DNA of 64,000 nucleotides, from assembly GCA_964106915.2 (NCBI GenBank), contig OZ066917.1; one strand, given 5' to 3'. Within the stretch, counting starts at the first letter, position 1. Each line of letters starts with the position of its first letter. Positions 9,518 to 49,974 of this stretch are shown here, one piece after another. This stretch comes from Podarcis gaigeae (taxonomy: Eukaryota). The notes beneath the pieces were generated by a model. The model saw only the letters and a list, made by a program, of their open reading frames with translations, was not told the DNA's origin and ran no database searches. A program made the position numbers and the translations under genes.

Positions 9518-9666
9518 CATAGAATCATAGAGTTGGAAAGGACCCTGAGGATTCTCTTGTCCAATCTCTTGCAATGCAGGAATATGAGCTGTCCCATGCG
9601 GGGATTGAACCTGCAACCTTGGTGTTATCAGCACCTTGCTCAAACCAAGTGAGCTATCCAGGCTCA
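9518..9666 (-). mobile_element. SINE with tRNA-Ile-like head and CR1-type 3' tail
   Basis: Minus-strand head tagctcacttggtttgagcaaggtgctgataacaccaaggttgcaggttcaatccc, followed by a CR1-like ctatgattctatg end. Confidence 0.7.
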
Positions 9667-21899: not shown

Positions 21900-24800
21900 A
21901 AAGGTTGAGACAATGGGTCAAAGGAATAAACTTCAAACTCAATACTTAAAGTCAAGAATGGTGGATACGTTTTTATTAAAGGGACAATTGACGGCAATTA
22001 AAAAATAACTGTTAGATTTGCATGTGCACCAAACTCAAAGCTACTTGGCTTTATTCAGAAGGTTTTATGTAAATTCAATAAATTGGCTGAGGGAGAAGCT
22101 AGACTAGGGGGCAACTTCAACTTTAATGTAAAAGCAGTGTCTTTAAAAGCCTTGAGCAAGGGCACCACCTGGAAGAACCTTTTAAAAGATAAAAGACCTC
22201 CTATGACTTACTACAGCTCTTCCAAAAATGGGGCTTATACAAGATACGGAGAAAATACAAAATATTTCAGTTTGACATTTCCTTCACCCCAACATGACTC
22301 CTGATCTGTATTAGACTTTTTATTGCTTAAAAGATAAAGGGAAACCCTGACCATTAAGTCTAGTCGTGGACGACTCTGGGTTGTGGCACTCATCTCACTT
22401 TAGTGGCCGAGGGAGCTGGCGTTTGTCCACAGACAGATTCCGGGTCATGTGGCCAGCATGACTAAGCTGCTTCTGGAGAACCAGAGCAGTGTACGGAAAC
22501 GCCGTTTACCTTCCCGCCGGAGCGGTACCTATTTATCTACTTGCACTTTGACGTGCTTTCGAACTGCTAGGTTGGCAGGAGCTGGGACCTAACAACGGGA
22601 GCTCACCCCATCGCAGGGATTCGAACCGCCAAATTTCTGATCAGCAAGCCCTAGGCTCTGTGGTTTAACCCACAGTGCCACCCACGCCCCTTATTGCTTA
22701 CTCCACAAGTTAATTCCATTCACACAGTGAACATTGATAACATCACTGATCATGCTCCAGTAGAAGTGACCATATGACCAAGCAATGAAATCCAAACTTT
22801 GACATCATGGTCATTTAACCAGCCGACTACCTAAAGGAAAAGATAGCAGAAACCCTACAATTCTATTTCAAGGAAAACGACAATGACAACACCAATTCTA
22901 CCAACCTTTGGGAGGCTATGAAAGCAGTGACAAGAGGTATCTGTATCAAAGAAAAAGCATATATTAAAAAACAAGTCTCTACAACAATAACCAAACTAGA
23001 AATGGAAATTACTGAGCTGCTAACTAAATATAAAAGTTCAGGTTCAAAATACCTCCTTAGAGGAATTGAACAAAAGAGACAAGAAATAGACTCCTTAGAA
23101 ATTAATGACTCTAGACTTTTGGCAGATGTAAAAAGAAAAAATCTAAGTCAGGGGTACACAGTATGCAAAAAAGCAATGGCATTAAAACATTTTCTCCTGA
23201 CTTCTGCTCAGAATTTGCCTTTGATTCTAAATTATGTACCTCACGATGCCCAAATTAAAAAAAGAGATATCCACAAATTCTTAGAAAACTTACCCATACC
23301 ATCATTAACCCATGATGAAAAAACCTTTTTAGATAGCCCCATCTCCATAGAAGAAATTGACAAAAACTGAAACCACATAAAGCCCAAGGACCTGATGAGT
23401 TTTATAAAAGATTCAAAGAAATATTATTACCATATATGGTCTGCCTATTTCATGACCTCTCCCCCAAACAGATATGAAAATGGCAGAAAAATAATTACTC
23501 CTGCAAAAGACCCAGAATAAATGCCAAATGAAGGAGGCTGGGGTATCCCAAACCCTGATCTATATTTTATTGCTAACCAAGTAAGACATGCTGTCCCTTT
23601 TATTTTAGATGACACCTCAATGGCTCCAATTGGAAAAAGAACTTATCAAAGGAATACCAACCTCTGCAAACCACTTCTTAGAACTGGGCTAAATGTTCAA
23701 AATAGATTCACACAAACCATACTTAATGCACAGAAAGAGAAGGCAGGAATCCCAACTCCTTGCCTTCCACCCACTGTTTTCATGACACTTCATGACAATT
23801 TTATGTTGCAAAAGGTCTACACTGGTTATCTGACTTTTATAACAGAAGTATAGCACTATCTGACCAAGAAATATGGACTAAACTAGGAAAATTAAAAACC
23901 CCTTGGCTGCTACTCCACCAAATCCACACTTTTCCTGGCTAACCCAGTTTAACAGTAAGGCAGTCATAAGACCATTAACCCCATCTGAAAGACTTGTAAT
24001 ATCCACAGAAGGACATGGCCCAGGTATAAAATCTGCAATCTATAAAATTCTACTCAGTGCATCGGTGGGTTCACTTGATCCTATTGAACACCAACGGGAA
24101 TGAGATTTCAACTACGAACTTGACCCAGGTCAATGGCTTAGACAAAAACAACAAACCTTTAAATCCATTTTCAGTGAGCAATAGGAAATTAATCCCTAAT
24201 CCCTAGGAACCTTGTAATGGCACCTCACCATGTTGCTAGAGGGGTGCCCCACACCCGGTACATATCTCCACGTGTGGTGGGAATGTACAAAAATCCAGCC
24301 TTTCTGGAATTCCATATTCCAATAAATTAATAAAATATCGAAATAACAATTGGAAGTCAAACCATAATTAGCTTCATTATATATAGTTCAAAAGTATATG
24401 GACTTACATAATAAATAATTAATAGGCCATTTATTACAAGTGGCAAGACAGAACGTAACCCGACACTGGCACAATGGTAGACAATTGGTACAAAACAGTT
24501 TGGGAAATAGCCCTCCCTGAGAGATTAACAAAAAGAAAAACTTCAGTTGATGTGGACAGATTGAGAAAGATGGCTTCACCCCAGTGTGGTTTAATTTCAT
24601 AACATATGCCAGTATCCCAGAAAATGAACAATCTCCCCCATCAGCATTTGGCTCAAACTGGTTGATCTAAATTTAAATTTAAACATAAATTATTACCTTC
24701 ACTTCTACACACATACTCAAAGCGGTTTCATTGATAGCATGATAGGAAAAATGACAGTTACTCATACTTAGCCTAAGCACAATTACAAGGGCTATGTGAT

Positions 24801-38887: not shown

Positions 38888-39298
38888 CAGTTCCTTCCAC
38901 ATAGACCATGGTGCCTTCCGAGCGCTTGCGGGTCATTGCGTACCAAGTGCCATCAGGGTCCTGAATCCACTCTGCTGCCTCGCAGTAAAACTCGCCTTCA
39001 TCAGAAGACTGCAGGTTGTAGATTGTAAGCTTGGACTGAGTTTCGCCTACTTTATCCAGGCGGATATCTCCACTGGCGTGCCGCTGGGTGTAATCACTTC
39101 CCGCACGCAATACGAAATCCCGGCTGAGGGAGATCACCTCCACGGCAGGCTCGTCTGCTTTCCGTCGATACCAGGCGATAGAAATATGGCTGTGCTGCAC
39201 GGTACTCTTGGATACCTCACACTTTAGCTCCAGAGAATCATGTTGCACTTTGTTTAGGGTCTGGGCTTCTGAGGTCACTCTCAGGGAGTCAGGAATAA
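38888..39298 (-). CDS. IGSF3: IGSF3 coding exon, Ig-V domain 2 (VIPDSLRVTSEAQ...YCEAAEWIQDPDGTWYAMTRKRSEGTMVYVEGT)
   Basis: Acceptor ctgcag|TTATT and donor ACTG|gttagt on the minus strand. 411 nt, phase 1-1. Has the Cys...Trp...DxGxYxC Ig-V signature and the EWI motif, and closely matches recalled human IGSF3 Ig2. Confidence 0.96.
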
Positions 39299-40263
39299 CT
39301 GCAGTAGAGAGACAGAGAAAGGACAAAAGTTAACATCTGGTGCTTAATGGGTCTTATATAGAGGATTATGCGCAGCAAATAAAAGTTAAGACTTTACAAA
39401 GCAATATGAATATAGTTTCACATTTAGATCTCTAAAGGGAAAGCCCTCAGTGGGACTGTAGCTCAAATAGGAGAGTCCGTTATCACCTCGGATCGAGGAG
39501 GTGGAATCCATGATCATTCAGATGTTGTGGGAGTCCAACTCCCATCACTTCCAGCCACAGATGATGGTAATTGCAGCCAAACAACAACTGAACAGTGAGA
39601 GGCTCCCCATCCCTGGGGAAGTCCTGGGATCGATACCCAACATCTCCGATTACAGGCATCTGTGGCAGGGACAGGAAAGGTTCTCCTTGTAGGTTTTCCA
39701 TGGACATCTGGTTGGCTACTGTGAGAACAGAATACATCCCAAGATGGGTCTTTGACTTGATCCAGGAGGCTCTTATATTCTCAGGTTCTGAATACCAGAG
39801 TTGGCATTGTTGAATATTATGGACAGCTTGTCTGAGACAATCTTATATCAAGCCACATTTAATCCTCAAGTCTTTTTCTCCAAAGCTGTTAGCAAATACA
39901 GAGCACTGTCTGCATATCTCCACTGGCAAATGAATCAAAATACTAAACCAGTGTGTGCACACAGCACCTCATTGCTACTGCAGAACTTAAGAGAGCCCAC
40001 TTACTCTTAGAGATTTATTTTATGATTTTATGAAACTTAACTGTAATCTTTAAAATTCCAATTATGTTCTCAAACCTTCAAAAGGAACTCTTTCCAGAAT
40101 TTTCTTTTTAACATTTATACTACCTTAGCTAGGTTTTCTTTCTTTCATCTTTCTCCAATAAAGCCATGAGATCAAATCTATCTCCTTTTTGCTTATGTCC
40201 TTTCATTATTTAACAATGCCTGTGAGCATAATTAAGATGCTGCACTCACAGGAAACCTATCTA

Positions 40264-48974: not shown

Positions 48975-49455
48975 GACTAAGGGATTAAGTCAGGGGCTTT
49001 ATGAAATGATTCAGTTTTGGGGGGAAAGGTTGAAGGAGACTGAAAGGTCACATCATATCGTATTCTGGGAAGCAGTTTTAGTGAAAAGGGGCAGGAAATG
49101 AGTGGAGTTGTAAGGCAGTAGGAGACTGAGGCTCCCAAAGTTGGAAAAAACTGAAAATCATAACTGCAGATAGTTCAAGGTACCAGGCTAGGTAGAGTTT
49201 TTTAAGGACAAGACAGTGTTTGTACAGGAGGGAGAGGGAGGAGAAGGCAAGACATGGTAAAGGGTTTTGAAAGGACAAAGGTGAGATCTGAGGGATAAGG
49301 GATAACTGATTTTGGCAACAGAATTATAGAAGTTTTGTAACTTTCACTCCAGGTAGGACCACCTTGCTACTTGTTTAATGGCTTTTTGTTGCATTCTAAA
49401 TAGCTTCCTATGAGCCCAGCTTCAGCTGACAGGTTAAGTTGAACAATGACAGCAC

Positions 49456-49456
49456 C

Positions 49457-49488
<32 letters not shown>

Positions 49489-49571
49489 TTCCAGTAGCAC
49501 CTTAAAGACCAACTAAGTCAGTTCTTGGTATGAGCTTTCGTGTGCATGCACACTTCTTCAGATACACTGTA
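49456..49571 (-). mobile_element. Short Penelope-like element fragment with 11-bp TSD
   Basis: A-tract followed by tccttccagtagcaccttaaagaccaactaag...gagctttcgtgtgcatgcacacttcttcagatac, typical of reptile Penelope termini. Flanked by the direct repeat AATGACAGCAC (49445-49455 and 49572-49582). Confidence 0.8.
49528..49565 (-). ncRNA. Minimal type-I hammerhead ribozyme motif (Penelope-associated)
   Basis: Minus strand reads GUAU-CUGAAGA-A-GUGUG(CAUG)CACAC-GAAA-GC-UC-AUAC. This gives stem I GUAU/AUAC, core CUGANGA...GAAA, a 5-bp stem II, a palindromic AGCU in place of stem III, and a UC cleavage site. Confidence 0.7.
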
Positions 49572-49974
49572 AATGACAGCACATGGGGGAGTGACAGAAT
49601 GGGGAGGAGAAAAACAGCTGTGATCTTGTGATAATGAGGGCAGGGTGTCAACGATGTGGATGGATATTTTCAAGCAAAGGTAGCTAACCCTCCTGGACAG
49701 AAAGAAAAATTACAGAAAACCTGTTTTAGCCTCTATATCAGCTTGCACCTCAAGTCCAAATGCCATTCAACCTGTTGGAGAAATAAAACTACGCTACACA
49801 CATGGCAGCTTCCTTTTTCCTGCTTAAGTATTGCAAGTAAGAAAATGATTCTGAGAGCAAGGAACATAGCATCTTTAACAGCATTCTCTTCTATTACATT
49901 AATCTGCAGTTCTTACTGTAATAGAACCACCAGTAGACTTTACAGCCAGATGAGGTTTGAAGGGCATAGGAGAG

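Follow-up and report, generated by a model that had tools for sequence, protein, structure and literature searches.

The presence of a seemingly complete hammerhead ribozyme in a very small insert on the sense strand of IGSF3 raises the question of which kind of element left it there and whether it acts on the host transcript. The sequence-only reading that drew attention to the locus proposed either cleavage of the nascent pre-mRNA, through pairing in trans with another copy, or a tiny retrozyme-like mobile unit made of little more than the ribozyme and a U-tract. The analysis reported here, extended to the copies of the motif genome-wide and to other samples, points to another origin: with a probability of roughly 0.7, the insert is a young stub, devoid of a promoter, that derives from an abundant Penelope-like element (PLE) and was primed inside the 5′ end of an uncleaved element RNA and ended by run-off at a likely capped start.

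Within the window (the whole 64,000-nucleotide stretch of DNA analysed), the insert spans positions 49456 to 49571, i.e., 116 bp, and is bounded by two identical 11-bp TSD copies, at 49445-49455 and 49572-49582, exactly as first described. On the minus strand it comprises a pLTR arm at 49486-49569, corresponding to parent positions -1 to +83 and identical in 84 of 84 positions to the pLTR of a complete PLE (locus L218), followed by the pLTR T-run at 49456-49485, in which 29 T and one G make up the 3′ end of a "short-type" arm. The assignment of the hammerhead to the Penelope type is borne out. The U-tract is indeed present, but it is not a separate component: it is the parent element's own T-run, expanded in this copy to 29 from the ~8-10 T found in most others. 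At the opposite end, on the plus strand, 49567-49571 can be read as the 5′ junction, with five bases that match the end of the element's tail.

Direct reading of the letters on the minus strand places a putative minimal type-I hammerhead motif at 49528-49565 (+4 to +41), with the features described in PMC4209133. Stem I pairs 49565-49562 with 49531-49528 (4 bp); the core CUGAnGA lies at 49561-49555 and is followed by one additional A at 49554; stem II, with 5 bp and a loop of 4 nt, covers 49553-49540; then come GAA at 49539-49537, a palindromic AGCU at 49536-49533 and C17 at 49532, which predicts a cut at 49532|49531, the position already proposed. The motif thus contains everything that defines the minimal type-I form, namely the core CUGAnGA/GAAA/UH, stems I and II, an extra base past A9 and a palindromic remnant of stem III, and each feature listed in the original description was recovered. 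The hammerhead pattern matched once in the window and never in 100 shuffles. A generic minimal-hammerhead scan of the window and the next 100 kb (164 kb) detected no second hammerhead, and no tandem array is found at the insert site. A search of Rfam gave no confirmation, with no hammerhead match at the gathering score or at E ≤ 10; two other Rfam hits, both with E > 0.3, were dismissed as chance. The 116-mer folds no better than its shuffles (z -0.03). Stem II plus its loop (49540-49553) forms a perfect 14-nt palindrome, through which two copies are predicted to dimerise, and several doublets are joined at this point (start +16).

The exact 43-nt motif occurs in 3,446 copies genome-wide, equally common on the plus and minus strands, and the 31-nt piece downstream of it, on the 3′ side, in 15,051; the reversed-pattern control was 0 for each. 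The complete element L218 (G000:C17:77540000-77546000, minus strand) is ~3 kb long and consists of a pLTR, an open 921-aa frame and a second pLTR, with hammerhead-bearing direct repeats 3,010 bp apart that share 171 nt of exact identity upstream of +1. Its frame matches RVT_1 (E 9.7e-12) and GIY-YIG (E 8e-06), above the Pfam cut-offs. RT and GIY-YIG sequence is present in long copies too, where it stops ~180 nt short of the motif on its upstream side. By eye, L056, L059, L061 and L062 show a CCHH motif in which two Cys are placed within the GIY-YIG core; in L218 the second Cys of this motif is substituted. The RT-EN linker carries CX4CxxC, also by eye, and fits the CX2-5CxxC motif that marks the Neptune and Nematis clades (PMC8557442). 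Judging by these domains and motifs, the parent is an EN+ Penelope-like element with a Neptune/Nematis-type linker. When the parent is numbered from the A of its initiator-like word (+1, window position 49568), the start of a TATA-like box is at -30; the hammerhead occupies +4 to +41, and the T-run, near +85 to +97, is followed by an ATG at +101 and by a 38-nt tail that ends near +135. The TATA-like box stands upstream of the open frame in L218; the window copy is single-armed and without this box.

Concerning the host gene, six Ig exons lie on the window's minus strand; of the best 120 of 658 protein matches, those relatives that carry a name are IGSF3. A 1,185-aa relative aligned with residues 27-150 at window-equivalent 82132-81761 and with residues 147-287 at 39311-38889; the Ig1 and Ig2 exons are contiguous in the protein and both on the minus strand, Ig1 being outside the window. 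Since these exons flank the insert on the minus strand, the motif is intronic and in sense orientation, as had been supposed for an intron upstream of Ig2. This Ig1-Ig2 intron (minus strand) measures ~42 kb, covering 39312-64000 in the window and extending to window-equivalent 81760, and the Ig2 exon (38889-39311, minus strand) is the nearest coding exon downstream. A CpG island at window-equivalent 106000-108000 (L073), ~25 kb upstream of the Ig1 exon, is a candidate IGSF3 promoter. Other repeat-like sequences were also noted: long open frames resembling, by eye, Copia-type and Gypsy-type LTR retrotransposon pol/gag at L070:1187-4786, in the same intron, and at L074:3418-8201; a tRNA-like match of 30.5 bits at 9598-9656 (minus strand), probably the head of a tRNA-derived SINE; and broken LINE-like ORF fragments at 22000-23850 (plus strand), one piece of which was scanned and gave no Pfam match.

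In organisms C and D, single contigs span 49445-49597 with 21 bases against 151 in the window, the insert and one TSD copy being missing at the left TSD site to within 3 bases of a local indel. The perfect TSD, the identity to the complete element over all 84 positions and the empty sites in two relatives together indicate that the insertion is young. A contig from a second individual of organism A extends 28 nt into the insert, which falls below the 31-letter rule and is taken only as a hint; in organism B no contig covered the flanks. To the right of the TSD, at 49584-49596, the window is 3 bases longer than the contig of another individual and differs from it by several substitutions, either an allele difference or an assembly error.

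The initial DNA search retrieved only copies with the full core and was biased in this respect, and the boundaries were therefore re-sampled through the 3′ pattern, yielding 100 arms in 72 insertions from the first 5.4 Mb of contig C1, a single stretch and not a random draw. Genomic copies, which the sequence-only reading had proposed to examine for shared boundaries and TSDs, showed both TSDs and non-random boundaries in this sample. A TSD of at least 7 was present in 57 of the 72 insertions (mode 12), and 28 of the 100 5′ ends fell at +2 to +4, with 36 in +1 to +8, 3 in +37 to +40 and 21 beyond -31, the last being read-through arms, whose ends are spread over -31 to -670. Expressed per base at risk, the rate of 5′ ends was 0.197 at +2 to +4, compared to 0.011 at +9 to +39 and 0.0045 upstream of -31. 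Genome-wide, exact-pattern breaks numbered 3,131 before +4, 2,341 before +2 and 829 before +6, and 3,126 copies read through to -11. Starts at +38, the cleavage site, amounted to 160 genome-wide against the 3,131 before +4, and this rarity indicates that the templates were uncleaved. All these counts derive from patterns of unequal length, and read-through copies with point mutations are among them.

The same boundary was found in arms extending into the ORF, 9 of 24 measurable ones starting at +3 to +5, and in the contigs of organisms A-D, four samples from one study. Here the commonest loose end was 49565 (+4), with 62, 51, 58 and 58 contigs, followed by 49567 (+2), with 29, 25, 28 and 28; the consensus beyond the former begins with the complement of G and beyond the latter with the complement of T. 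Contigs of four putative RNA runs from other organisms, compared to the L218 5′ pLTR, showed +4 ends with an extra base in three of four, and these could be host transcripts or stub-bearing DNA and do not bear on RNA starts. The hotspot at +2 to +4 (49565-49567, minus strand), the presumed RNA start, sits ~30 nt downstream of the TATA-like box, and the distance from a TATA box to the RNA start follows a canonical rule. It coincides as well with a good splice-acceptor-like sequence, whose AG has its last base at +2, and it falls at the edge of stem I. The window copy matches the parent up to -1 and so lies at the fringe of the hotspot.

The base preceding the boundary was also informative. In the parent, +4 is preceded by T. 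A hand count of the first 100 of the +4 breaks listed gave G in 72, A in 17 and C in 11, and the same count for the +6 breaks, used as a control, gave G in 21, A in 31 and C in 48; C at +6 is inflated by transitions, but G against A alone is 72:17 at +4 and 21:31 at +6 (G enrichment, Fisher p 4e-13). The sequence upstream of the extra G varies from copy to copy, and G was found in 13 of 13 +4 arms lying behind ORF sequence. Forty-six +4/G junctions were examined: 12 break a clear element word, one comes directly after the TSD, 10 are possibly templated by neighbouring element sequence and 23 stand behind short filler, the last two groups weighing against the cap reading. A second master or a spliced exon upstream of +2 or +4 was rejected, the 100 upstream contexts listed for each class being heterogeneous. 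An added G is a known sign of m7G cap copying by RTs (PMC4038843). We infer that +4 is a capped Pol II RNA start, with the G arising either through copying of the cap or from a C that was added at run-off, and the extra G likely marks the capped start of the element RNA. At the breaks before +2, the preceding base is T in 77 of the first 100 listed and G in 11 (hand count), the T often as part of CT or GT; cap copying does not explain this T, which weakens the cap model, and the +2/T class might reflect slippage or re-priming on a GU repeat. The window copy carries no extra G.

Sampled insertions were inverted in 49 of 72 cases, and their 3′ ends lay at two preferred places, the T-run or the end of the 38-nt tail. 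In all 25 two-arm pairs one arm was tailed and the other untailed. Thirteen of these pairs were reciprocal, each arm containing sequence missing from the other, and the remaining 12 fit twin priming and fold-back alike; because reciprocal arms cannot come from a simple fold-back, two separate primings are favoured over folding back of a single cDNA. Five of the 72 insertions resemble the window copy in being a single short-type arm, ≤100 bp long and flanked by a TSD. The window's junction word has eight genomic matches, comprising two read-through variants, two with target-derived bases, three joined at the tail word and the window itself. Positions 49567-49571 are possibly the stub of a second, inverted arm attached via microhomology, although only 2 of the bases are informative. 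Biochemical work on a lizard PLE describes a protein that nicks and extends both target strands, RT starts at two internal RNA sites bracketing the tail, and products whose length tracks the template 5′ end, hammerhead cleavage being unnecessary (PMC11167929).

Two further arrangements were observed in the family. At many loci of L188-L217 and L221-L229 (e.g., G000:C1:3476931-3477154), all found with a query that selected for such an arrangement, an ORF-start arm extends as far as +189 to +871, with ends clustered at +189 to +226, and is directly followed by an arm from +4/G or +2/T, as though the RT had jumped from the RNA 5′ end to internal sites. At G000:C1:9792059-9792237, three tandem hammerhead starts 75 bp apart would form a retrozyme-like array out of this Penelope-like family.

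In the model that we prefer, the element's enzyme would cut the target and reverse transcription would be primed within the 5′ end of an uncleaved RNA, either in the T-run of the 5′ pLTR or where its tail ends, so that only ~90-130 nt could be copied before the RNA ends. The RT would run off at the capped RNA start and the cDNA would be joined to the other cut end. Usually both cut DNA ends would be primed, one per 3′ site, and joining of the two cDNAs would give the head-to-head doublets; the window copy would be an untailed arm whose partner is absent or reduced to a 5-base stub. On this view, the stub contains the hammerhead because the ribozyme occupies the first 38 nt of the RNA.

The proposal of an independent retrozyme-like unit, in a wider form a self-propagating non-autonomous mini-element (retrozyme- or SINE-like) consisting of the ribozyme and a U-tract and derived from short transcripts, possibly circles, draws on the fixed boundaries and TSDs, on the 5 of 72 single short arms, and on the thousands of truncated copies that retain the upstream TATA-like box and could provide short RNAs in trans; animal retrozymes have also been proposed as derivatives of PLE pLTRs (bioRxiv 2026.07.22.740005). 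We consider it improbable. The insert is an exact piece of the parent pLTR and a stub without the upstream box; 5′ junctions are heterogeneous between copies, just eight sharing the window's junction word and these with mixed origins; on the 3′ side the copies end at either of two places, and most of them have an inverted partner arm; and units cut by the ribozyme would begin at +38, a rare start. Retrozymes, moreover, have at least two tandem hammerhead units and a canonical type-I motif with a 6-bp helix I and tertiary loops, and here neither array nor canonical motif is found at the site, the hammerhead being single in 164 kb and its helix I 4 bp long. Still further from likely is cleavage of the IGSF3 pre-mRNA by trans pairing of the intronic ribozyme with another copy, with an effect on the gene, even if the orientation is sense, the core is intact, thousands of exact copies could serve as partners and the hammerhead of the lizard PLE PAc cleaves in the presence of the element protein (PMC11167929). 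No second copy lies within 164 kb, stem I has a predicted pairing probability of ~0.06 in a 300 nt context, and two copies are predicted to pair via the 14-nt stem II palindrome and not via AGCU; single minimal motifs are reported as inactive and dimers as weak in vitro (PMC4209133). The insertion is also young and absent from two relatives, and plus and minus copies are equally frequent, as for any scattered repeat. The predicted hammerhead is likely a passenger of the IGSF3 intron, the single insert is probably inert, one of thousands of copies, and cleavage of the pre-mRNA by it is unlikely.

The remaining alternatives accept a Penelope origin and differ on the 5′ end. Ordinary random truncation, with no preferred end, would suit the scattered ends of the read-through arms (21 of 100), but it is contradicted by the boundary counts, in which the rate per base at +2 to +4 is ~17 to 40 times that of the flanking intervals, a peak seen also genome-wide and in other samples, and we give it almost no credence. 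More serious, while still unlikely, is an explanation that keeps the same parent and the same stub but attributes the hotspot to a splice acceptor at +2|+3, to an RNA end trimmed at the base of stem I, or to template switching induced by structure. Just before +3 stand a polypyrimidine tract and AG, stem I begins exactly with +4, the +2/T class is large (2,341), and in Drosophila Penelope the intron ends where helix I has its 5′ end (PMC4209133). Splicing is opposed by the lack of a shared upstream exon among the 100 listed contexts of each class, trimming or stalling by the extra G, which neither predicts, and all three by the TATA-like box at the canonical distance. Run-off of an internally primed cDNA at a likely capped RNA start accordingly remains our preferred account of the stub.

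A broader version of the run-off model is put forward only tentatively, as a possibility that we would not yet favour. In this "strong-stop"-like replication, the mRNA would be capped at the hammerhead's first base, and the RT would start ~90 or 130 nt downstream on each cut end, copy the cap and then jump. A jump to the other end would give stubs and doublets, one to internal RNA sites partial tandems, and one to the 3′ pLTR full copies. If true, it would amount to a retrovirus-like strand transfer in a telomerase relative, and the ribozyme would be a 5′-leader switch: its cut would take off a capped fragment of 34 nt and, in the 3′ pLTR, could set the limits of the terminal repeat. The family statistics outweigh the single insert in importance: a young family with thousands of near-identical junctions leads to a base-precise prediction, namely RNA start at +4, cap copying and two-ended priming. 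A cap-like G at the ribozyme's first base, or a strong-stop account for PLEs, was not found in the openly readable literature that was searched.

PLE hammerheads and their copies, solo or on opposite strands, are already published, and so are the inverted pLTRs, tails and TSDs; the way in which PLEs assemble their pLTRs, tails and inverted ends is called unresolved in PMC8557442, PMC2377424 and PMC11167929. The family shares with EN+ PLEs (PMC8557442, PMC3846280) an ORF that encodes RT and, at its C-terminus, GIY-YIG, as well as direct pLTRs, inverted arms placed head to head, a one-ended tail of 30-40 bp and a variable TSD near 12 bp. In the available text of these two sources 5′ truncation is frequent and no fixed 5′ end is given, whereas here there is a hotspot; PMC3846280 ascribes inversions to self-priming on an antisense template, whereas the reciprocal arms seen here favour two primings. 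Poseidon_Ac (PAc) of Anolis carolinensis (PMC11167929) is likewise a reptile PLE with a minimal hammerhead in its pLTR, and has in common with our model two RT start sites bracketing the tail, an uncleaved RNA template and extension of both strands; compared by its description, it belongs to the Penelope/Poseidon clade and has its ORF from stem II, while the present family has an ATG at +101 and a CX4CxxC linker.

With the minimal type-I hammerheads of metazoan PLEs (PMC4209133), which are reported also in turtle and snakes, the motif shares a short helix I, an extra base between 9 and 10.1, G10.1-C11.1, a palindromic 15.2-16.2 and thousands of solo or opposite-strand copies; it differs in a stem II of 5 bp with a palindromic loop and in the great uniformity of its copies (3,446 exact). 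Animal non-LTR retrozymes (PMC7229834, bioRxiv 2026.07.22.740005) are similar in being non-coding, with a type-I hammerhead, a link to PLE pLTRs and long TSDs, but they are tandem repeats of 150-450 bp with canonical motifs and circular RNAs, in contrast to one isolated 116-bp stretch of pLTR that carries a minimal motif. Finally, LINE-1 twin priming and cap copying by RTs (PMC11702581, PMC4038843) offer the parallel of inverted arms with a clean TSD from two-ended priming and of a cap-copy G; compared to LINE-1 twin priming (PMC11702581), priming here would be internal, near the RNA 5′ end, with the same segment copied by both arms.
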